64,000 nucleotides of DNA from Alphaproteobacteria bacterium (GTDB lineage Bacteria; Pseudomonadota; Alphaproteobacteria; MPNO01; UBA830). The stretch covers positions 32,001-96,000 of the forward strand of contig OZ219790.1 of assembly GCA_964291215.2 (NCBI GenBank), read 5' to 3'. Below the pieces are notes generated by a model that was not told the DNA's origin, did not search any database, and saw only the letters and a program-made list of their open reading frames with translations. Positions 30,098 through 52,945 of the stretch are shown here, one piece after another. Numbering within the stretch: the stretch's first letter is position 1; the number at the start of each line of letters is the position of its first letter. The position numbers and the translations under genes were made by a program.

Positions 30098-30187
30098 TGG
30101 CGGATGGGGTGGGATTCGAACCCACGAGACGCGCAAACGCCTGCTGGTTTTCAAGACCAGTGCCTTCAACCGCTCGGCCACCCATCC
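30098..30187 (-). tRNA. tRNA-Ser(TGA), 90 nt, CCA encoded
   Basis: GGATGGGTGGCCGAGCGGTTGAAGGCACTGGTCT-TGA-AAACCAG, long variable arm, GGTTCGAATCCC...CCGCCA. Confidence 0.97.
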
Positions 30188-35770: not shown

Positions 35771-37457
35771 GTATCTACTCACCCCTAGTTGGTTTCTGAT
35801 TGGTCGTAGTGCTCGTTGATGATGTCTGCGGCTTTTCCGTCGAGGACGATCTGGGTTGCGACGTGATGATTGTAGCCGAGTGCCGCCATGGAGGTGAGGT
35901 AGCTTGAGCCCCGGCACCATGCTTTTGCGTGGAGCGGGTAACTGCTCACCCCCTGGTTCCGGCTTGATGTCGGGGTAGAGCAACGAACGGGTTTTCGTGG
36001 AGATTTGACACTGCAGGCCGATTCGTTTAGTGGTGGTAATCGAGAACGACGGGGACCGCCAGTGGGCTACTTTGGATCGAAGGCGACGAGCGGGCTGTGC
36101 CAGCTGCTTCCGGGGCTCCAGCCCCCGCATGATCTGTATGTGGAAACGCATCTCGGAGGCGGCGCGCTGATGAAGCGCAAGGCCGGGTGATGGCGACGGG
36201 CGGCGCGCGAGGAGTTCGAAGCGGCCAAGGCGCTGCGTGCGGCCGGCAAGGTGCCGAAAGAGGCCGTGATCCGCGTCTTCGTCATCCTGCTCGACATCCT
36301 CATCGTCGTCCTTCTGGAGAAGACCACGCACGAGCCGGAACTCCGGTCTGCCGCCGTCACAGACGGACAAGAGCGTGCCGGGAGCAAGGGCCCGAAGCCA
36401 AACCGGCAGATGGGCGACAACCTGCGCAAGACTATCGTCGAGGAGACGGTCGCGGCCTGCGACGCCTGCGGCGCCGACATCGACGGCCCCGTCGATCGGG
36501 AGCGCCGCGTCCTCTATGACATCGTGTTCGAGGTCGTCGAGCGCCGCGTCGACGTCGAGGAATGCCCGAAGTGCAAGGCCCGAACCAAGGGCCGGTTCCC
36601 CGACAACATCCCGTGCAGTACGGCATCGACATCCAAGCCCTCGTCATCAACCTGCTGGTCGCCCAGATGCTGTCCCTGCGCCGTCGCGCTCGTGCAGGCG
36701 ATCTCCGGCATCAAGCTCTCCGAGGCCTCGGCTATGCTTTCACGATGTGTCATGGGAGGAGGCCGCCGTGGCGCACCTCCTGCAACGCCCGATGTCGATG
36801 ATTTCGGATCAACAGTAAGTGGCTCCATGTCGTGGGACCCTGACGTGCAAGTTCCCGCACCGCAAGCGCGGGCAAGAGATCGGCCCGTGCTACAAGGGCG
36901 TCCTGGGCCTCGTACATGGGCCAGTGTAGCCACCAGTTGTGCGGCAGCCACCTGCTGCGCGAACTGACCTTTGTCGTCGAGGCTACCGCTGGGCGCGACT
37001 GATGAAGAGCCTGCTCCGCGAGGTCTGCCACAAGATCAACAAGAGCGCATCCAAGACCCTGAACGACGCCGGGCGCAAGCGCTACCGCACCATCAGGGCG
37101 CCAGGGAACTGCCCGATATCCCGCCGCCGCCGAAAGGAAAACGTGGACGCAAGTCCGACGCGCACAACCTGCACGAACGTCTCGTGAAACACGAAAACCT
37201 GCGCTTCACAGACGACCCCGATGTCAGCTTCACCAACAATGCCGGAGAACAGAAGATCAGGATGGCAAAGGTCAAGGTGTCCGGATGCTTCCGCTCCACG
37301 CAAAAGTATGGTGCCGGGGCTCAAGCTACCTCACCTCCATGGCCGCACTCGGCTACAATCATCACGTCGCAACCCAGATCGCCCTTGACGGAAAAGTCGC
37401 AGACATCATCAACGAGCACTACGACCAATCAGAACCCAACTAGGGGTGAGTAGATAC
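35771..37457 (+). mobile_element. Degenerate IS66-family element (35938-37457) preceded by an inverted right-end fragment (35771-35937)
   Basis: IRs GTAACTGCTCACCCC / GGGGTGAGTAGATAC; HQLCGSHLLREL and SFTNNAGEQKIRMAKVK.SGCFR; Dam-like passenger fragment. Confidence 0.85.
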
Positions 37458-37803
37458 AATTTATTTTAGCGAGAACCCTTACCTGAACCGGCGGAGACGC
37501 CCCTGTGGTGAGCTCCGTGGAGCTTTGGCTGCACATGCGGCCTTGACGGAACAGAGTTCCGGCCAGCCAAGCCGCGCCAGTGACTTGGCATAACGGCAAA
37601 GTCGAATGTCTACTCTTGTGCCGGCAATCGCCTGTGCAACTCAAGCCCTTGCATAAGAATCGTGTTGGCATGGTTGAAATTCTCAGGCTACCCCTGAAGC
37701 TGGTACGCCCATTTCTCGCCGTGAAAAAGATTACTCCGAAAACGGTAGGCGATGATGAGCAAAGCTGCCGCGATCTCAAAATGCTCCGCAGCGTCATTCC
37801 CTA

Positions 37804-39064
37804 GTAGTCTAACATTATTGGATTGACGGATATAGTGACTTCAGTTTCGTCCGGGCATCCTTCGTCGTGAAACGCCAGTCGACAGTGACATCGGCCGCAT
37901 TGCGGCGCTCGACCCACGCCATGGTCTCCCGCAGCATGGTGTCGCGGTCGGGAATGCGTCGCCGAAGGCATTGCCGCGACAGCGCACCGATCTCGATCTC
38001 GGCCATGTTGAGCCAGCTTCCGTGCTTCGGCGTATAGCGAAACTCGAACCGCTTTCGCACCCGCCTCCTCGGGCTCGAAGGCTTCATACAGCGACTGTGC
38101 GTGTTCAGATTGTCCAGCAAGATCTTCCTGTCGGGGGAATGGTCGTCGGCAAGCTCCTGGATGAAGTGCGCCCAGTCCCGCGACGGTCGGTGACTTTCAC
38201 CGTGCGCCAGTTCTCGTTGGGCGCAAAGGCCATGAAGAGGTTGGCCGTGCCGTTGCGCTCATATTCATAGTCGACCACCTCCGGCTGACCGGGGGATGCG
38301 GGTTTCCTGCTGCCGGCTGGTCTCAGCACCTCGTCCCTGGCAAAGTCCCGCTGATAAATGTCAAGCACATCCTCCATCGCCGCCACGAGCTGTGCGCTCC
38401 GGTGCGGTGGAATGCACCAGTACTGCTTCAGCCACGGCTTGATCTCCTTTTTTTTAGCGTCTTCCTGACCGTCTCTTCCGAAATGCTCTCGACGATCTCC
38501 ACCAGACGGCCGGCAAGCAGCGTCCACAGCCCTCGGGCGGGGACGAGCAGGCCAGAGCGACCAGCTTCGCCTCCATCGCCCCGTCCAGCCGTTTCGGCCG
38601 ACGGTTCACCTGCTCCTTGCGGCTGAGGGCGGCGTCCAACCCCTCCAGGACGCAGCGCTTGCGCAAACGCTCGACCGTCGCCGTGCCGATGCCCAGCCCT
38701 TGCGCAATGTCGGCATCGACAGACCGAGCGCCGTCGCGCCCCTCGTCGGCCAACATCAGGATTTGTGCCCGGCGCCGACGCCAGGCGGCCCCGGTGCCGT
38801 CGACGATCGCCTTCAGATCCTGGCGCTTCTGCGCTGAAAGGGTCACGCGGTAGAGCTTCCTGCCCCGAGAGTTGGCCATATGCGCCGCTCCTGTCATTGC
38901 GCCGAAGACCTGCGGGCATGCCCGTTGTCCGGACCTGCACATGGGGCTGCGGCTGCCTGCCTGTTCGGCATCTGCCCGTGTGGATGGCACTGTCCGGATT
39001 CCAACGAACGCCGACACGGAAATACTACCCACAAAAAACCATCAATACAATGCCGGTGGACTAC
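37804..39064 (-). mobile_element. IS630-family element with TA duplication
   Basis: TA at 37802-37803 and 39065-39066; YTPKHGSWLNMAEIE; A-run slippery site near 38450. Confidence 0.9.
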
Positions 39065-39135
39065 TAGAACCTTTCGTGCGAGAGTAGGTTGGTCGCCGTT
39101 CCGGAGGTTGAGATGATCGAAATGATAGGTAAATG

Positions 39136-40635
39136 GTATCTACTCACCCCTTGTTGGGTTCTGATTCATAGTGCTCGTTGATGATGTCTGCGGCTTTTCC
39201 GTCGAGGGCGATCTGGGTGGCGACGAGTGGGTTGTAGCCGAGTGCGGCCATGGAGGTGAGGTAGCTTGAGCCCCGGCACCATGCTTTTGCGTGGAGCGGA
39301 AGCATCCGGACACCTTGACCTTTGCCATCCTGATTTTCTATTCTCCGGCATTGTTGGTGAAGCTGACGTTGGGGTCGTCTGTGAAGCGCAGGTTTTCGTG
39401 TTTCACGAGACGTTCGTGCAGGTTGTGCGCGTCGGACTTGCGTCCACGTTTTCCTTTCGTCGGGATGTCGGGCAGTTCCCTGGCGCCCTGATGGTGCGGT
39501 AGCGCTTGCGCCCGGCGTCGTTCAGGGTTTTTGGATGCGCTCTTGTTGACCTTGTGGCAGACCTCGCGAAGCAGGCTCTTCATCAGTCGCGCGGTAGCCT
39601 CGACGACAAAGGTCAGTTCGCGCAGCAGGTGGCTGCCGCACAACTGGTGGCTACACTGGCCCATGTACGAGGCCCAGGACGCCCTTGTAGCACGGGCCGA
39701 TCTCTTGCCCGCGCTTGCGGTGCGGGAACTTGCACGTCAGGGTCCCACGACATGGAGCCACTTACTGTTGATCCGAAATCGTCGACATCGGGCGTTGCAG
39801 GAGGTGCGCCACGGCGGCCTCCTCCCATGACGCATCGTGAAAGCATAGCCGAGGCAGGTTGCCTCGGAGAGCTTGATGCCGGAGATCGCCTGCACGAACG
39901 CGACGGCACGGCGCAGGGATAGCATCTGGGCGACCAGCAGGTTGATGACGAGGGCCTGGATGCCGTACTGCACGGGATGTTGTCGGGGAACCGGCCCTTG
40001 CACTTCGGGCATTCCTCGGCGCGGCGCTCGACGACCTCGAACACGATGTCATAGAGGACGCGGCGCTCCCGATCGACGGGGCCGTCGATGTCAGCGCCGC
40101 AGGCGTCGCAGGCCGCAACTGTTTCCTCGACGATGGTCTTGCGCAGGTTGTCGCCCATCTGCCGGTTCGGCTTCGGGCCCTTGCCGTTGCTTCCGGCACG
40201 CTCTTGTCCGTCTGTGACGGCGGCAGACCGGAGTTCCGGCTCGTGCGTGGTCTTCTCCAGAAGGACGACGATGAGGATGTCGAGCAGGATGACGAGGACG
40301 CGGATCACGGCCTCTTCCGCCACCTTGCCGGCAGCGCCGCGGTCTTGGCCGCTTCGAACTCCTCGCGCGCCGCCCGTCGCCATCACCCGGCCTTGCGCTT
40401 CATCAGCGCGCCGCCTCCGAGATGCGTTTCCACATACAGATCATGCGGAGGCTGGAGCCCCGGAAGCAGCTGGCACAGCCCGCTCGTCGCCTTCGATCCA
40501 AAGTAGCCCACTGGCGGTCCCCGTCGTTCTCGATGACCACCACTAAGCGAATCGGCATGCAGTGTCAAATCTCCACGAAACCCCGTTTGTTGCTCTACCC
40601 CGACATCAAGCCGGAACCAGGGGGTGAGCAGTTAC
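39136..40635 (-). mobile_element. Degenerate IS66-family element with 8-bp TSD GGTAAATG
   Basis: TSD at 39128-39135 and 40636-40643; same IRs as the other copies. Confidence 0.92.
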
Positions 40636-40886
40636 GGTAAATGTACCGTCGCGATAGTACCTGTTCCAGAAGTGCGCCAACTGTGGTTCGAACGATTTCT
40701 CGGTGATCAGATGGACATCTGCCCACTGTCGCGCGATCGCGACAATGGCAGCTACATCGCCGCGTTTGTTAAGCGCCTCGGATTCGAACAGGCTCCACAG
40801 AAACGAGAAATGCTTGACAGCTTCTCGCTCTTCCTGAGAAAGTGCGGGAAAATCCGGCGCATACCTTTCAAGCCAATCCATCGGGG

Positions 40887-43538
40887 TCATTGCAGCCAGT
40901 CGATCTTGTCCTGGCGCTGCTTGATGTCTTCGACCCAGCTCCGCAGCGTCGTGATCTCATTCTGAACGGCGTCGGGTTTCGGCAGCGGCGGATTAAGGGC
41001 ATCCGCCGAACTGTGCAACAGCGTCGAACAACGCCCGTATGCCTGGCGCATCCCGGTACAGTCATCCATCATCAACGTCGTGACCTTGGCCAAACCTTTG
41101 GTCTCCACTTTGTTCGACAGGCGCTTGATGACCGGCCCGACAGCTTCCTCGACGGCACGCTCCCAAGTCCAGCGCAAGCGTTTTTGCAGCGCGTCCACCG
41201 TTCTTTCCCATTTGTCGTGATCGCCGTTCTCATACAGGCCCTTCTCATTATCGAGCTGCTTCTGCATGCCCTCAATAACCTTCTCGATCGGCTGGGCACG
41301 CGCGGGCGGGTCCTGCTGGACAAATCCAACGTAATCGTCGGTCCGGGTGACAGAGCGAAAAGCCACATGAGTACCCTTGTCGCGGCATGCTTGGTCGAGC
41401 AGGAAGAGGAAGGCGATATCGTGCGTCAGCACGATGATCTGCCGGTGTTTCCCTTCGTCGGCCAGCCGTTCCGCTACCGCATCGCGGTGCATGTGATCAA
41501 GCGACGATACCGGGTCGTCGAACACGATCGCGGAGCGACTTTCGGTCGTCGCGAGTTCGGCCAGGAACGCCGCCAGCGCGACGCAACGATGTTCCCCCTC
41601 GCTCAGAATCTCGCCGACACGGGCGTCCGGCTTGCGGATCAGGCTGACACGAAAATGCGGAACGCCATAACTCGTCTTCTCCTTGCGCAGCTCGATCGCC
41701 AGCCCGGCGACGCCGAACTTGTCGATCTCTTTCGAGAACTGGGCGCGCAGCGCGTTTGTGACGAGCTGCTCGGCGAGCTCACCGCTCTTTGTCGTGATCC
41801 GGTTCGTCGTGGTGTCTTTCGACACGGCATCGAGCACGGCGCGCTTCTTCCGGCGACCAATCTCTGCGATGACATCTTCCTGTATCACTACCAGCCATTC
41901 GCGGTCGGCCAACTCTTCGAACTCTGCGCGCATCTGCTTATGTTCTTCGGACTCGTCCTCCGCACGCAACGCGCTGATTCGTGCCAATAGAGCGGCGCTG
42001 TGCACTGCGATAAGTTCGGAGGGCCACGCCTCGGCCACCGGAAGCGGATCGGCTTCGTCCCCCTTCGTGTGATTGCGTAGGATCTCGCGCAGCCGGCACT
42101 TCAGCGTGACGGCAGCCCGGCGGACAGACACCGCAAGCTCACCATCGTTTAACTCGTCGCGGACGAAGGCGACAGCCGCCGGAATATCGCCGGCTGGGAC
42201 ATCGGAATCGACCAGTTTATCCAACGCGGCGCGGTACGCCGCTGCGGCTTGTTCTTCCCTCCGCTTGGTTTCGTCCTTCACGAAACCCTCGAAACGCGCA
42301 AGCCGGTCAGCCGCTTCTTCGTCGAGTTCCTGCTGGCACAGCACGCAGTGCGCACCGTCCACAGTCACAGGAAACGGCCTATCCGGGTATGCCTGCTGCT
42401 CCGAATAGCTTCGCGCCGCCTCCCAGAGCCCGCGCCACACATCGGAGCCGACATCCGGTAGCGGCTCATCGGCGAAGAGGTCACCGGCGGCAGCCATGGC
42501 GGTGGCCTGTGCCGTTCGGTGCGCCTGATACAACGCCGTAAGGCGGCTGGCTTGTGCGTCACTAACCGCCGTGTGTAAAGCCTCAAACGCCGTATTGACC
42601 GCGTCGAGCCGGTTCTTCAGTGCCTCGACTTGGCGCACCACCTTGGCAGGGTCGGTGCCCAGGTCGGTTTTCAGCGTGCCAAGCCGCACCTTCTCCTTCT
42701 CGTCGAGCGTCGCTAGGTCGCGAACGTCCTGTTCCTTCGTTTCACCGTTGAGTCCCGTGATCAACTTGCCGACCGTCGTATTGTCATGGCATTCCGGCTT
42801 CGTGATCGCCTCGGGAGTCTGATGTTTTAGTTCGCGGAGTTCCGCGGTGATGCGCCTCTTGATTATCTGGCAGGCTTCGGCGAGTCGCTCTAACACGCGC
42901 ATCGGGAACGGCGTATAGGCGACATCGTTCAGCTCATCGACATGCACGTTGGCGGTGCGACTATCGAACACGCTGATCGAGGATAAGAGCGGATCGCCAG
43001 GGTCGTCCGCTGTCCAGTTCTCGCTCTTGTTGTGCCCATTGGCGCTGAAGTCGATTACTGCCCTTTGTTGCTCAGTCTTCGTTGCGTAGATATTCGGCAG
43101 TATTAGGTCGCCCTTCGGTGGCGTGCGGGCCCGGCAGACCTTCTTCAGAACACGCGCGTAACCGGACTTGCCCGACCCGTTATCACCGTACACGACCGTC
43201 AACCCGGCTTTGTCGAAGGTTAGGCGTTCGCCGGCTTTCAGTGCATTGATGTTTTCGGCGTCATGAATGGCCCGAAGATTGACGGCAGTTGTGGCCACCT
43301 GGGGATCGGGGATGTGTTCGGCGGCGATGGGAACGCTGCCTTTGCCGTTGCTCTTGCATAGAGCCGTTAGCTCGTCCAGGTCAGCATCTTCCAGCATGTC
43401 CTTCGTGCATAGGCGGCGCAGTGCATCGCGCTGCCATGCCGGGCAGTCTTTCGACTAGGCCAAGATATCGGCCAGGGCTAGGGCCTCGCTGGCGATCTCT
43501 TTCTGCTGATTTTCTAAGTCTTCGGCTATGTCAGCCAT
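40887..43538 (-). pseudogene. RloC/AAA_13-like SMC-type ABC ATPase with zinc hook; nonsense TAG at codon 28 (836-aa ORF remains from 43397)
   Basis: GDNGSGKS, CVLC hook within a coiled coil, LSEGE, IVFDDPVSSLD, LTHD; upstream frame reads MADIAEDL...ILA*SKDCPAWQRDALRRL. Confidence 0.85.
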
Positions 43539-43613
43539 TTCCAATCAACCTGTTTCGAGTTATTGCACGCCCTGAGCTGTCCTGGTGTGCCGCGCTGGCA
43601 TCGCTTGGAACCC

Positions 43614-43865
43614 CTAGATCGCTTTGATCTCCTCAAAATCTTCCGCAGTCTTTTCTAGAATTCGCTGAAAGCATTCGTCACAAACCCGCTTGGCTGTAGA
43701 ATAGGCGCTGCCTAGTTTCGGGATCGATATACAGGTATCTCCGGCGGCGAACAGGGCATGACATCGTGAGCACTTGCTTTGCCGCTGCACGGGTACGCGC
43801 TTGGGTCTGCCATTCGCTCCGCCGATTAATGACGGCACAGGCCCTCTAGGCTTCCTTCTGTTCAT
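43614..43865 (-). CDS. Small basic Cys-rich (Zn-finger-like) protein, 83 aa
   Basis: CSRC...C...CDEC; overlaps the 3' end of the helicase gene by 20 nt. Confidence 0.75.
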   Translation of the reverse strand: MNRRKPRGPVPSLIGGANGRPKRVPVQRQSKCSRCHALFAAGDTCISIPKLGSAYSTAKRVCDECFQRILEKTAEDFEEIKAI

Positions 43866-45876
43866 ATTCCGCTTTCGCTTTGTGCACGCGCCGGACGAGC
43901 GTTTGGAGCAGGTCATCAAGGTTGTCCAAAACCTGTCTGAACTCCTCAGTACTCGCCTGAGCCCGCTCTTTACCGAGGCGCTTGTTGATTTCGTGATTGA
44001 CCATCATTAGAGCCGATACGTAGTTTTTATTCCCGGTAGTATTCAGGGACTGGTACTTGTAGGTCAGCTCGGTCCCCGTCATTGAGAGCTCGACATGATT
44101 GAGCAGGAGCTTCGCCAAGCGTTGCGCCTGTTCGTAAAGTCGTTTTTTCGCTTCTTCCCATTCGCGCTGCGGTTGGATCAGGAACGGCTCTGATGGAGCA
44201 CGTTTTCGGACGGCTACGCCTCGCGCTTTCTTGACCATTTCCTCGGCCTGGTCGGGGTCGAGGCCGAAAAGCTTCAGGCGGTCCCGAAAATCCTCGATGA
44301 TTTGCTGATCCTCGACGGTGGTGAAATCTTCCTCCCACAGCGATTCGACGATCTCACCATGAACGACGAGCCGTTCCTCGGCGGTCAGCCTCGCCGAACC
44401 GTCGAGTACCGACTTCGGCACTTCGGGTTCGTCGCCGCCGATGACCTTGTCCCAGAAGGCCTGGTCGTCATTTTCAAATTGTTTGAATTCCTTCAGGCGC
44501 TCATCGAGATTCATACCGAGATGCGTCACGATATGGCCGACATTATCGGGATGCATCGGGTCGTTCTGAACGACGACGCGCATGATCCTGCCGACGAACT
44601 GGACGTATGGCGCCAAAGTCCTGAACGGCCGGAAGATTGATGCGACGCTCAGCTTCGGGTGGTCGAAGCCCTCACCCAGCATCTGGACCTGGACGATGCA
44701 ATCCAGCGTTCCGTTCTGAAGCGCGTTGAGGATCGCCGCTTGTTCGTTGTCATTCTGTTTGCTGTGAATGACATCCGCGTTGAATCCGCGCTCCTGGTAC
44801 AACGACCGGATTTCCCGCGCATGGTTGATCGAGCACGCCACTGCGATCAGTTGATGGCGCGTTCCGCTTTGCCGCAGCTCCTCCAGCTTCTCCAGACTGC
44901 TATCGACGATGTGCTGGTTACAGGGACGCGCAAGCGCGACGCCGCGGCTGAACCAGTCTTCTTCCTTGAGTTTGAGAACCTCGTCGAGACTGTAGGTACG
45001 GCCGCGCTCGTCGCGAAATCCCAGTTCGATTTCCGAGGGTACGACATAACTCGCCTTCAGGCGCTTGATGTAACCTTTCAGCGTGGCGCTCCTAAACGAG
45101 TACCGATAGACCAGTTCGCCATCGATTTCCTGGCGGTCGCTCCGAAAGGGCGTGGCCGTCAGGTGAATGACCTTGGCAGACGGAAAGCGGTCGATGACCT
45201 TTTGCCAGCTTGCGGCTGTGCTGTGGTGGGCCTCGTCGACGATGATCATGTCGAAAAAGTCGTCAGGAAACTGTGTGAGCCATTTGTCGACGTTGGTAGC
45301 AAGCTGCTGGATATTTGTGATGACGATGTGGGATTTGGTTGCGACCGAGATGTTGCCGGTCTCCAGCGTGCAGGCCAGCGGTCCCGCGACCATCTGGTCT
45401 TTGCTAAGCACAGCCGTTTTACGCCAGAAGCATTTCTGGCGGTTAGTTATGTCCATCGCGTCGTAAAGGCCGTTTTTGATCGTCAGGTTGGGCGCGATGA
45501 CGATAACGCGTCCCTCGGCGAGACCTAGGGGAAGCAGGGCGGCTAGACCGGTCTTGCCGCAGCCGACAGGAATCTGAAGGATCGCCTTGTTCTTACCGGT
45601 GCGGAAGAATTCATAGGTGCGCAGATAGCCGTCGTGCTGTGGCTCCCGCAGGAACGCGTTGCCTTCGATGTCGAAATCAAGATTGACGAAGAAGGATTCC
45701 AGAGGCTGCTTTGTGCGAACCCAGGCATCCAGCCCTGCCTTCTCGAAAACCCACTTCTTGCCAATTTTCCGGGCCGGGATGCGCCCCTCGCGCGCAAGTG
45801 TATAGAGCGCGGTCTTACCCATACCCAAATAGGCTGCCGTTTCGTCGAGGGAGAGCCACCCAGCATTCGATTCCAT
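43846..45876 (-). CDS. Excisionase-type HTH fused to an SF2 DEAH (ResIII-like) helicase
   Basis: WLSLDETAAYLGMGKTALYTLAREGRIPARKIGKKWVF; PVGCGKT, DEAHH, TATP, QFVGRIMR. Confidence 0.9.
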   Translation of the reverse strand: MESNAGWLSLDETAAYLGMGKTALYTLAREGRIPARKIGKKWVFEKAGLDAWVRTKQPLESFFVNLDFDIEGNAFLREPQHDGYLRTYEFFRTGKNKAILQIPVGCGKTGLAALLPLGLAEGRVIVIAPNLTIKNGLYDAMDITNRQKCFWRKTAVLSKDQMVAGPLACTLETGNISVATKSHIVITNIQQLATNVDKWLTQFPDDFFDMIIVDEAHHSTAASWQKVIDRFPSAKVIHLTATPFRSDRQEIDGELVYRYSFRSATLKGYIKRLKASYVVPSEIELGFRDERGRTYSLDEVLKLKEEDWFSRGVALARPCNQHIVDSSLEKLEELRQSGTRHQLIAVACSINHAREIRSLYQERGFNADVIHSKQNDNEQAAILNALQNGTLDCIVQVQMLGEGFDHPKLSVASIFRPFRTLAPYVQFVGRIMRVVVQNDPMHPDNVGHIVTHLGMNLDERLKEFKQFENDDQAFWDKVIGGDEPEVPKSVLDGSARLTAEERLVVHGEIVESLWEEDFTTVEDQQIIEDFRDRLKLFGLDPDQAEEMVKKARGVAVRKRAPSEPFLIQPQREWEEAKKRLYEQAQRLAKLLLNHVELSMTGTELTYKYQSLNTTGNKNYVSALMMVNHEINKRLGKERAQASTEEFRQVLDNLDDLLQTLVRRVHKAKAEYEQKEA

Positions 45877-46679
45877 AGCTGTTCCTTATAGTATTTGATG
45901 CTGTATGATAGCAAATGAAAGGTCCTGATACAAGGGCTTCAGGCCGACGGAAGTTTGCCGCCAAGTCAATACAGGAATCCTGGCTTCTGGACCGGCTCCA
46001 GGCTCGCCCGCTCTATTGCGCACGACTTGAAAACCTGGTACCGCCGTGACCCGGGTTAGGCGGGACATGTCCCCCGTTCCATAGTGAAGTGCAACACATG
46101 ATGGGCTGTGGCCATGTGTTTTTAGACGCATGATGTTGCGGAGCGGTAGCGGCGAGAGTTCCTGTACAAGATGAAGGGAGCTTGTTCATGTCCAAAGGCT
46201 ACCGTCACCTACGAAGAGCGATGCCAGATTGAGGCAGAAGAGCGGTCTTTCACAAGGTACGATTGCTCGGCAGCTGGGCCGTGACCGATCAACAATTTTC
46301 CGGGAGATCAAGCGCAACACCGGGGGACGGAGTTACCGTCACAAGCAGGCGCAAAGGATGGCAGAAACGCGCCGCAGGGCCGCCTCGTCTGTTTCTTGGC
46401 GGTTGACGCCTCGGGTTGAGGCTCAGAAAAAGCTGCGGGAGGGCCGTGGGTCGGCAACGGATCCATGATCGCATTCATGAAGATCGGAGAGCCGGGGGCG
46501 TCTTGTGGAAGAAGCTTCGGCGGCGCGGCAAGAAGCCGAACTGGAAGGGCGGATGCCATTCCGGCCGGGTGGACATTTCCGAGGGAAATTATATACCAAA
46601 CTCCCATTTTTCCTTGACGCACCGGGCGTAATCCGCCATGATGAGGATAGGGCGAAACACGCCATAAGAGGTTGTTCCG

Positions 46680-48091: not shown

Positions 48092-48514
48092 CTATGCCCT
48101 GCGCTGGGCGTCTATCTCAAGCTGAAGCCGATTGATGAACGGCCGCACTGCGCCCTTCGGCACGTTCTTGATCTGCCGTGCAGCGAAGCCATCGTTGATG
48201 ATGATCTTGCCGAAGATGAGGCCAGTCTCCCCGGAGACGCCGTTGACCCTGTCGAGGGGTATCGAGGACTCCTTGAGGCCCCACAGCATTCCCTTGTCGA
48301 GGAAGAGCACCCGACGATCCGTCAGGGCGATCAGCCATGTGTTCCCGTCCAAGATGCCTGATGCGAAGCCAAGCACCTGCTCATCGTCCGTCAGGAGCTG
48401 CGGCAGATGCTTCAACTCCTTTTTGGTCCCGAACCCATCATCGCCGGACTCTCTGGCGATCTCCTTGAATTTCTGCTCAAGCTCCTGTTTCGATGCTCGC
48501 TTGAAATCGAACAT
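48092..48514 (-). CDS. Bacterial PH-domain (YokE/bPH_3-like) passenger protein
   Basis: KKELKHLPQLLTDDEQVL...LIALTDRRVLFLDKGMLWG...IPLDRVNGVS; GGAGGG RBS. Confidence 0.8.
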   Translation of the reverse strand: MFDFKRASKQELEQKFKEIARESGDDGFGTKKELKHLPQLLTDDEQVLGFASGILDGNTWLIALTDRRVLFLDKGMLWGLKESSIPLDRVNGVSGETGLIFGKIIINDGFAARQIKNVPKGAVRPFINRLQLEIDAQRRA

Positions 48515-50835: not shown

Positions 50836-51478
50836 ACATTCCGAAGAGCTGCACGGACCGTGCGCCGCTTCAGCGTCTCGGCGTATCCGTGGACGAAAGG
50901 CTCGTCACCGTCGCTACCGTGACGGCATTCCAGCCCGGATGGGCCGATTCGTGCAGCGGCACCGATAATGTTCTCACGGAGGACCAATCCTGTTTCTTCG
51001 CGGTCCACATGGTACGCAACTGCCGGAAAAGCGTCCGGGCAGGATCATTGACGAAAGGCACCTTCGCCAGCACCTCCGGGCGTCGTGCGGCGGGAGGCGC
51101 GGCACCGGCCATGTCTCCATAAGCGCCAGAACAGACCGTGCTTCGGTCGCGGTCACACGGCACTGCGATTCGATTGCAAACTGTCCGGCTATGGAGCAGG
51201 ATTGGATGATCGTCCACCGGCATTGTGCCCATGGAGGCGGCGAGGCAAGAAAGGGCCGGAGAGGCAGAGCATGGCTAGGGGAACACCCACACGACGATTC
51301 CACGCTGCCAATCCAGCGGCGACCGGCGAGATTTTTCGGTCTGCGTCGCGCTGCAATCGTGCCGCCAAGGCTCAATGAGACCTTCTCGGCGCGAAAAATT
51401 GCGATCAAGGGGCGATCTGTGATGACGCGAGCCCCAACGCACTCGGATTTCGCGTCTCGGAATCAGCATGGGATCGCC

Positions 51479-52945
51479 GTGGGAACACCCAGGAAACAGC
51501 AAGGCGGCGCGACGACCGGGCGCGGCTCAATGGAGGCGGCGGAATACAAGCATGTCGTCCTCGGTCTGATCTTCCTGAAATACATCTCCGACGCCTTCGA
51601 GGAGCGCCATGCGGCGGTGTTGGCCGAATGGGGCGCGGACGCCGCCGAGGACCGGGATGAGTATGCGGCCGAGAACATCTTCTGGGTGCCGCCGGAAGCC
51701 CGCTGGGAGCATCTGAAGGCGCAGGCGCGGCAGCCGGCTGTGGGCCAGGCGATGGCGGCGGTTGAGCGGGAAAATCCCGCGCTCGAAACTGTGCTGCCGA
51801 AGGACTATGCCCGCCCCGCCCTCAACAAGCAATGGCTCCGCCAGCTCATCGACATGGTCGGCAACATCCGGGTGGGCGATGCGGCGGCGCGCTCGCGCGA
51901 TGTGTTGGGCCGGGTCTACGAGTATTTCCTGTCCCGGTTCGCGAACGCCGAGGGCAAGAAGGGCGGCGAGTTCTACACTCCGCGCTGCGTCGTCCGGCTG
52001 CTGGTCGAGATGCTGGAGCCGTACCGGGGGCGGGTTTACGACCCGTGCTGCGGCTCGTCCGACATGTTCGTGCAATCGGTCGAATTCATCCGCGCCCACG
52101 CCACCGGCAATGGCGGCCGGATGCGCGGCGACATTTCCATCTGGGGCCAGGAATCCAACTACACGACATGGCGACTGGCAAAGATGAACCTCGCCATCCG
52201 CGGCATCGAGGGCCGCATCGCCCATGGCGACAGCTTCCATAACGACCGCCACCCCGACCTCAAGGCCGACTTCATCCTTGCCAATCCGCCGTTCAACGTG
52301 AAGGACTGGGGCGGCGAGCGTCTGGTCGACGACAGGCGCTGGCAATACGGGACCCCGCCGCCGCGCAACGCCAACTTCGCCTGGGTGCAGCACATGGTCC
52401 ACCATATGGCGCCCGGCGGCACGGCAGGGATCGTGCTTGCCAACGGTTCCATGTCGTCGGCCCAGTCGGGCGAGGGCGAGATCCGCCGCAACCTGGTCGA
52501 GGCCGGCCTCGTGGACTGCATGGTCGCCCTGCCGGGCCAGCCCTTCTACTCGACGCAGATTCCGGCCTGCCTGTGGTTCCTGACGCGGGACCGCGGCAAC
52601 GGCCGGTTCCGCGACCGGCGCGACGAAATCCTGTTCGTCGATGCCCGCGCGCTGGGGCGCATGGCGGACCGCACCCACCGCGAGTTGACGGACGAGGACA
52701 TCGCCCGCATCGTCGGCGCCTACCACGCTTGGCGCGGCGCGGCGCTGGCCGAGGTGCGCCAGCACGGCCATGTACTCACCCCCGGCCGCTATGTCGGCGC
52801 GCCGCCGCAGGAGGACGACGGCGAACCCTTCGAGAACAGGATGAGGCGCCTCGCTGCGCAGCTGCGCGAGCAGCAGGCCGAGGGGGCGCGGCTGGACGCG
52901 GCGATCGAGAAGAACCTCCAGGCGCTGGGGTTCAGGGGGAATTGA
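51479..52945 (+). pseudogene. hsdM: Type I R-M methyltransferase subunit with in-frame deletions
   Basis: [30 protein letters not shown]; motif I reads [10 protein letters not shown] instead of GSGGMF, and the N-terminal LW..AD.L segment is missing. Confidence 0.8.

Follow-up and report, generated by a model that had tools for sequence, protein, structure and literature searches.

Do four neighbouring genes that resemble one operon also form one defence system? This question is raised by a window of 64,000 nt from an alphaproteobacterial genome (contig OZ219790.1 of assembly GCA_964291215.2, positions 32,001 to 96,000 of the forward strand; positions below are those of the window). Here, a helicase, a small zinc finger, an RloC-like ABC ATPase and a HEPN-like last gene are all present on the minus strand, and a preliminary description had read them as one operon, in which the helicase would act as sensor and the last gene would supply the RNase effector. 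Our results argue for another answer. The stretch is probably a mosaic in which two modules that travel separately lie side by side, a half-dead defence cluster. Module 1 (43581-45918), consisting of the helicase and the finger, is its sole intact part and the live candidate for a new system.

The distribution of the genes in other genomes carries this answer. The best 80 of 84 helicase matches in species-representative genomes gave 76 loci, cut out with flanks of up to 8 kb; going by the record titles, they come from Proteobacteria, Acidobacteria, Bacteroidota, Planctomycetota, Chloroflexota and Patescibacteria, among others. The zinc finger followed the helicase in all 76 loci (74 by tblastn, the other two by profile), and the two genes overlapped by exactly 20 nt in 55 of 74. 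All five plasmid helicase loci that we opened had the finger as well, down to a helicase identity of 32%. By tblastn and profile search, the ATPase was found in 0 of the 76 helicase loci, and so was the HEPN-like gene; 61 of these loci have at least 3.5 kb of downstream sequence. This absence speaks against the helicase as sensor for an RNase encoded by the last gene. In the closest helicase locus (L001), a DNA likeness of 91% spans 45918-43581 and ends 43 nt before the ATPase start.

Searches from the other end of the cluster covered the best 80 of 194 confirmed HEPN loci, which are metagenomic and lie in many cases on short contigs. The ATPase occurred in one of them (L137, in the order ATPase, GIY-YIG-like gene, HEPN), and these 80 loci held no zinc finger and no helicase core, with one HTH-only (helix-turn-helix) helicase match. 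Among 72,556 plasmid records, the ATPase was detected in 161 and the HEPN-like gene in 10, which leaves at least 151 ATPase records without a detected HEPN. Five ATPase and three HEPN records were opened (one shared), and only Pannonibacter p.BB_2 couples the two genes, with the same ATGA overlap as in the window and identities to it of 72% for the ATPase and 48% for HEPN; the four other opened plasmid ATPases (~50% identity) have no HEPN. Genome samples gave the ATPase in 3 of 41 relatives and in 7 of 401 genomes of the class, counting the source genome; the others had no HEPN in flanks of ~1.5 kb, some of them cut by contig ends. The HEPN-like gene was present in 4 of 401 genomes of the phylum, the source genome again among them, and the other three had no ATPase in 1.5-kb flanks. 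Because of the finger in 76/76 helicase loci, the ATPase and HEPN in 0/76, and the HEPN-side and plasmid counts, the locus is best described as a fixed helicase-finger pair adjoining an ATPase that usually stands alone and is occasionally followed by HEPN. The co-occurrence search had been set beforehand as the refuting test of a single four-gene operon, and it found that set in 0 of 76 helicase and 0 of 80 HEPN loci.

The helicase (43846-45876, minus strand, 676 aa) is intact and combines HTH_17, ResIII and Helicase_C in Pfam. Its motifs are invariant in 65 sequences (Walker A G105-K108, D214-E215-x-H217, Q426/G429-R430/R433). Its closest solved relatives are RadD (YejH) and XPB. With these motors and with helicase-containing defence pairs such as Hachiman, PsyrTA and PbeA, it has in common the ResIII and Helicase_C core with the DEAH box, a small coupled partner and a defence-island setting. 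It differs from them by an excisionase-type HTH at the N-terminus, an unassigned C-terminal part of 200 aa, which has no family at the Pfam cut-off, and a partner that is an 83-aa zinc finger instead of a nuclease. Pfam detected no nuclease or toxin domain in the helicase. PADLOC and NCBIfam hold no full-length family for it, the NCBIfam helicase models staying far below their cut-offs, and against the named helicase systems of PADLOC 2.0 (Hachiman, Pbe, PsyrTA, DISARM, type IV RE) the best match was partial, with E 8e-18.

A motif upstream of the helicase cassette (45906-45918, minus strand) is kept among the helicase loci. Derived from 14 aligned sequences, i.e., 13 of the 76 loci and the window, it recurred with at most two mismatches in 69/76 helicase loci and in 0/76 control segments. 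For sigma-70, a scan with the consensus listed no site in this upstream region. The motif is likely a promoter or operator bound by the N-terminal HTH of the helicase, and the earlier suggestion of a self-regulating HTH-helicase is likewise favoured as likely.

The partner gene (43614-43865, minus strand, 83 aa) is intact, shares the 20-nt overlap with the helicase and belongs to a family with four conserved cysteines, in which a profile search found 127 small stand-alone proteins at E ≤ 0.001. Its model (pLDDT 88.7) has a predicted treble-clef fold. In Foldseek, PARP-1 took 9 of the top 10 rows (probability 0.72-0.96, TMq 0.49-0.55, E ≥ 0.28), and in VIA finger 2 of PARP-1 (3odc) came first (Z 4.6, root-mean-square deviation (rmsd) 4.0, 62 aligned). 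The zf-PARP finger of PARP-1 and DNA ligase III is the best, though weak, fold match in both searches, and weak profile links point the same way. The finger profile reaches a five-zf-PARP protein at E 3e-5; against Pfam PF00645, matches stayed short of the cut-off (3/67 finger members, best E 0.13), including that of the distant partner P0121 (E 0.009). PADLOC gave no match for the finger, and Atlas only unnamed clusters. The finger of PARP-1 binds its zinc with a Cys-Cys-His-Cys set, whereas the protein found here has four cysteines and is a stand-alone bacterial protein.

The pair also travels on plasmids. Near-identical helicases sit on small Salmonella and Klebsiella plasmids. Distant helicases that lack the HTH (32-37% identity; L178, L181) keep an overlapping finger of 75-77 aa with fewer canonical cysteines, and L178 is a 5.9-kb mobilisable Klebsiella plasmid that carries the pair as cargo.

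What might such a pair do? For its neighbourhood, we took the nearest open reading frame (ORF) of 150-900 aa to the left and to the right of the cassette, after dropping six near-duplicate loci and two without a tblastn finger. Of these neighbours, 23/124 matched PADLOC at E ≤ 1e-10, versus 1/109 control ORFs (Fisher p 4e-6) chosen by the same length rule at 20 positions fixed on the chromosomes of 11 genomes, all of one class. Defence-type cargo, as the preliminary description had it, is favoured. With slightly less than even confidence, we suggest that module 1 is a DNA-conflict unit that represses itself and works without a nuclease: the finger would read ends or nicks and the motor would stall DNA. 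The HTH would repress the promoter of its own helicase, the PARP-like finger would bind nicks or ends and load or gate the RadD/XPB-like motor on phage or plasmid DNA that enters the cell, and the motor might then stall or strip the invading DNA with no dedicated nuclease.

A possible but rather unlikely alternative is that the pair serves its mobile element rather than defence, for example by repairing or processing DNA ends in transfer, integration or replication restart. That its closest solved relatives are repair motors, and that Pfam sees no nuclease or toxin domain, would be in line with such a role. Integrase-, recombinase-, TraG- and ArdC-like genes (labels partly by sequence reading) are frequent neighbours too. 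However, no fixed transfer or replication partner accompanies the pair: the commonest neighbour families (opposite-frame ORFs aside) occur in at most 11/77 loci, and there is no fixed third gene. The share of defence-type neighbours and the cargo position on the 5.9-kb mobilisable plasmid also argue against this alternative.

Somewhat unlikely as well is a bolder extension of our reading. The pair would then be a nuclease-free immune module in which a stand-alone PARP-1-type break finger would load an XPB/RadD-like motor onto the ends of invading DNA, and its self-repressed promoter would also drive downstream effectors, here the RloC-like tRNase, activated by DNA ends, and the HEPN RNase, as a coordinated DNA-break alarm cluster. 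A gene within 120 nt after the finger was co-oriented in 18/64 and convergent in 12/64 loci; a landing pad downstream of the finger was rejected for want of a clear signal in these counts. In seven loci (L016, L019, L020, L021, L038, L041, L045; cluster 13), a conserved, co-oriented ORF of 150-160 aa follows the pair; the six that were scanned had no PADLOC match, and this ORF is possibly an optional third gene.

The second module starts with the ATPase (40887-43538, minus strand, 883 codons). PADLOC assigns it to PDC-S06 (PDLC04891) with E 2.4e-191 over profile positions 12-857 of 858, and AAA_13 and SMC_N are above cut-off in Pfam. PDC systems are described as untested candidates (Payne 2024, 10.1101/2024.01.29.577857). 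We compared the protein with 132 homologues, 119 from the homologue search and 13 rows from the loci, which are mostly close relatives and include the same fragment in two rows. The LSEGE signature and T705-H706 (THD) are invariant in 132/132, and the Walker A residues G121 and G123-K124-S125 in the 112/112 that have a residue there. Both cysteines of the CVLC zinc hook (C398, C401) are kept in 129/129 sequences with a residue, within a coiled coil judged from sequence. At the C-terminus, R789, E793 and H842 are each present in 132/132 with a spacing of 48 (R-x3-E-x48-H), and this triad persists in the tails of homologues that are 29-35% identical. The RCSTLLH motif of the tail, previously flagged as a possible HEPN-type site, contains the triad histidine H842, while its R836 is present in 126/132. 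Both the comparison with RloC, drawn earlier from the Rad50-like hook, and the putative HEPN-type site in the tail are favoured by the invariance of these residues.

RloC is defined by ABC motifs, a CXXC hook, a C-terminal Arg-X3-Glu-X36-52-His triad and a length of 658-897 aa (Davidov & Kaufmann 2008, PMC2610378). Its hook is described as silencing the protein itself, its DNA-dependent ATPase as switching it on, and it is often lone cargo (Klaiman 2012, PMC3458546); its nuclease domain has been classed as HEPN (Anantharaman 2013, PMC3710099). The ATPase of the window shares the ABC motifs, the coiled coil with CXXC hook, the triad (X48) and, with 883 aa, the length, and it is likewise lone mobile cargo without linkage to restriction-modification (RM); this likeness is judged by the published motif definition. 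It differs in having Leu where Ser usually precedes the triad His, in the stop at codon 28 and in the separate HEPN gene that follows; its frame is not intact here, and it is a broken or N-truncated member. PrrC also fuses an ABC ATPase to an R-x3-E...H anticodon nuclease domain, but it is a short protein with no zinc-hook coiled coil and is invariably associated with a type I RM locus. In the window the hook is present, the PADLOC match to PrrC is weak and partial (E 3e-5) and the nearest hsdM (51191) lies more than 5 kb from the cluster. Strain PA14 carries two PDC-S06 by PADLOC (PMC11878078) and is the sole strain listed in PMC2610378 with two RloC orthologues, a match that is suggestive. 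By analogy, the ATPase would have worked like RloC, cutting tRNA with its own C-terminal site. Because it has its own R-x3-E-x48-H triad and the RloC zinc hook, it likely needed no separate effector.

The gene can no longer be read straight through. Its frame begins at 43538, and the TAG at codon 28 (43455-43457) stands where 107/107 relatives with a residue there have tryptophan. Past the stop, the frame is open from 43397 for 836 aa. Unless the stop is read through, the first 47 residues are lost, and with them the conserved N-terminal helix, whose residues W35, Q36, D38 and A39 are kept in 105-107 of 107 relatives. A second, distant member (29-30%) lies elsewhere in the same genome (C1:406885-407988, L080), as a fragment that also has an internal TAG. 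In viral contigs, searched with close-match patterns only, no ATPase was confirmed.

The last gene is more heavily damaged. Its 5' piece (40636-40890, minus strand, codons 1-85) ends in the target duplication of an insertion sequence (IS) of 1500 nt (39136-40635, minus strand, degraded), flanked on both sides by the 8-bp GGTAAATG (39128-39135 and 40636-40643). A middle piece (39065-39135, minus strand) separates this element from a second, also degraded (37804-39066, strand not assigned) and inserted at TA. We take the two elements to be of the IS66 and IS630 types, the names given in the preliminary description. The 3' piece (37610-37803, minus strand) holds RFRSNLFH (R128-x4-H133) and a premature TAG at 37688-37690. 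The frame is restored when the IS66-type element is excised together with one copy of GGTAAATG and the IS630-type element is taken out at TA, as had been proposed. This is further supported by a 1444-nt contig from X2, a sequencing run under another study code than the run X1: both elements are absent from it at exactly these joints (1263 + 1508 nt skipped), and it runs into the ATPase end. The length of 169 aa given earlier does not hold, since the rebuilt frame halts at the TAG after 143 codons and reaches 169 aa by read-through alone. At this position (codon 144), 107/108 relatives have glutamine, and a sense codon stands there in the X2 contig as well; intact database relatives are 167-169 aa long. 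In this genome, the gene is dead and its catalytic piece cannot be made.

As for the family, at least 350 clusters of relatives were found, and in the 108 aligned, R128, H133 and E36 are invariant (108/108), which favours the HEPN-like assignment made earlier. The Ex3[KR] form was not found in this family, position 40 being L, M or V. The model of the intact relative P0001 is all-helical (pLDDT 90.5). Its best VIA match was 1wwp (Z 6.0, rmsd 3.0, 91 aligned), which we take to be a HEPN-like structure and which lies within the stated background of the tool, followed by 8xdj (5.2; 3.2, 91), 2hsb (5.2; 3.7, 93) and 7ae2 (5.1; 4.8, 100). For three intact relatives, Pfam matched no model, and PADLOC no HEPN model, with one weak unrelated match. 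A search of PDB sequences with the HEPN-like protein found none, and Atlas gave only unnamed clusters, the clusters named as HEPN (0.75-0.76) being no more than leads. Stand-alone HEPN RNases (Rx4-6H; PMC3710099; HEC-08 in Payne 2024, 10.1101/2024.01.29.577857) share the all-helical domain of 169 aa, the invariant R128-x4-H133 and the upstream E36, and HEPN entries take several of the top places among the fold matches, but the HEPN loci opened here have no MNT antitoxin and their neighbours vary. The last gene likely encodes a HEPN RNase of an unmodelled family.

Upstream of the HEPN-like gene, the commonest neighbour is a protein of 167-181 aa with a Cys-rich tail, found in 7 of 80 loci that form one cluster (L090, L099, L107, L117, L120, L138, L142); a like tail occurs in L137 (1887-2396). 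In pSinA (L164:5459-6501), a gene annotated GIY-YIG holds that position, and GIY-YIG and HEPN are possibly another unnamed pair.

Could the two TAG stops, which the preliminary description had overlooked, be apparent only? Contigs from X1 equal the window, unchanged across both stops, which speaks against an assembly error, although X1 is possibly the source sample and not independent. Recoding or read-through of TAG was likewise rejected, because the sites need tryptophan and glutamine, respectively, and the HEPN gene itself terminates in TAG.

By analogy with RloC, module 2 likely served as an abortive tRNase of that type, to which HEPN added a supplementary RNase; it has since decayed, in a genome with heavy IS expansion. 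DNA ends and ATP would free the hook-held switch of the ATPase, as the work on RloC suggests; the freed C-terminal domain would cut tRNA anticodons, so that translation stops in the infected cell, and the HEPN gene would add a second RNase beside it. An unlikely alternative makes the ATPase and HEPN a true two-gene subtype within the close-ATPase subclade, either a two-RNase RloC variant or a sensor with an effector as in Lamassu or PARIS. The ATGA coupling in the window, X2 and p.BB_2 fits that view, as do the gene order in L137 and the relatives P0042 (HEPN) and P0162 (ATPase), possibly a coupled pair, for which the same longest contig figure (5352) is listed. Yet the two proteins of p.BB_2 differ in their identity to the window (only 48% for HEPN, 72% for the ATPase), 79 of 80 HEPN loci lack the ATPase, the upstream position is most commonly held by a GIY-YIG-like gene (the seven loci of one cluster and L137), and four ATPases of ~50% identity stand without HEPN. 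HEPN is directly coupled to such an ATPase in one plasmid and one near-identical relative only.

The base composition and layout of the cluster are in part as first described. The four co-oriented genes have a lower GC content (0.53-0.61; 0.56-0.73 at third codon positions) than four host genes (0.63-0.65; 0.77-0.87), and both the 20-nt helicase/finger overlap and the ATGA overlap of the ATPase and last gene (40887-40890) are confirmed. Tight coupling applies to these two junctions but not to the third, where 75 nt without overlap separate the finger from the start of the ATPase frame. Because the terminator scan listed no minus-strand terminator between the cluster genes, all four may be co-transcribed here, as a local accretion rather than a conserved system; no RNA dataset carrying the locus was listed. 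X2 holds helicase pieces, ATPase pieces and intact HEPN pieces, and none of its contigs bridges the two modules; it is a near-identical relative of the window and not an independent case. One four-gene abortive-infection system, in which helicase and finger would sense DNA and the ATPase would switch on the HEPN RNase, is very improbable and as a conserved unit largely refuted: its orientation, low GC and short gaps, the absence of a listed minus-strand terminator, the pieces in X2, the plausible response of both modules to DNA ends and the 18/64 loci with a close co-oriented gene are outweighed by the helicase loci that lack both downstream genes, the 12/64 equally close convergent genes, the ATPase's own triad, the two broken genes beside an intact pair and the unbridged X2 contigs.

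Several points weigh against our account of two separately travelling modules and of what they do. Defence is a prediction from sequence for every part of the cluster. The near-identical relative X2 may carry all four genes, and the helicase loci were found by close-match patterns, with one genome per species. Because the ATGA coupling recurs in p.BB_2 and X2, the ATPase-HEPN pair is more than chance. The defence-type neighbours may reflect mobile DNA generally, given that the controls are chromosomal; moreover, methyltransferases and generic helicases are among the PADLOC matches, and related loci are not independent. For the HEPN-like gene, Foldseek of the P0001 model gave no match at E ≤ 0.001, and the HEPN entries among the top VIA rows (Z 5-6) are level with unrelated bundles. 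As to the finger, break sensing appears a lead rather than a result, because no Foldseek match has E ≤ 0.001, its VIA score (Z 4.6) is level with RING (4.4) and C1 (4.3), and by PDB sequence profile FYVE slightly beats PARP-1 (E 0.0009 versus 0.003).

The wider surroundings are rich in insertion sequences. The genome holds ~180 IS66-type and 74 IS630-type matches of at least 600 nt, the best copies differing by 29-91 gaps each, and X1 contigs show indel variants among IS copies. This heavy expansion suggests early genome decay with small-deletion drift, or noise in the assembly of repeats. Just beyond the HEPN gene, another IS66-type copy (35938-37457) is inverted relative to that at 39136-40635; its two flanks differ, which suggests a rearrangement or deletion there. 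The IS-riddled stretch (34700-64000) also contains a type I hsdM-like methyltransferase (51191-52945) and a bacterial PH-domain gene (48092-48514), and a tRNA-Ser (30098-30187) lies ~4.5 kb to the left of the first IS debris.

How new, then, are the parts of this cluster? The earlier statement that the combination fits no named system stands for the helicase-finger pair, which matches none in the libraries searched, and fails for the ATPase, which is catalogued as PDC-S06. Literature searches at the level of titles and abstracts, together with passages of PMC13069673, gave no description of the pair or of the four-gene set. Both the ATPase and HEPN fall within kinds that are already known, HEPN as a new member. 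Half of the cluster amounts to an RloC-like gene that is already catalogued, here in a decaying copy. Recognising PDC-S06 proteins as probable RloC-type tRNases, on sequence evidence, would clarify this label for users of defence annotation, and the HEPN family of at least 350 clusters stands without a model. The helicase-finger pair is small and strictly conserved across phyla, and the searched libraries hold no match to it. Should its finger sense breaks as that of PARP-1 does, a damage sensor of eukaryotic style would be linked to immunity in bacteria.

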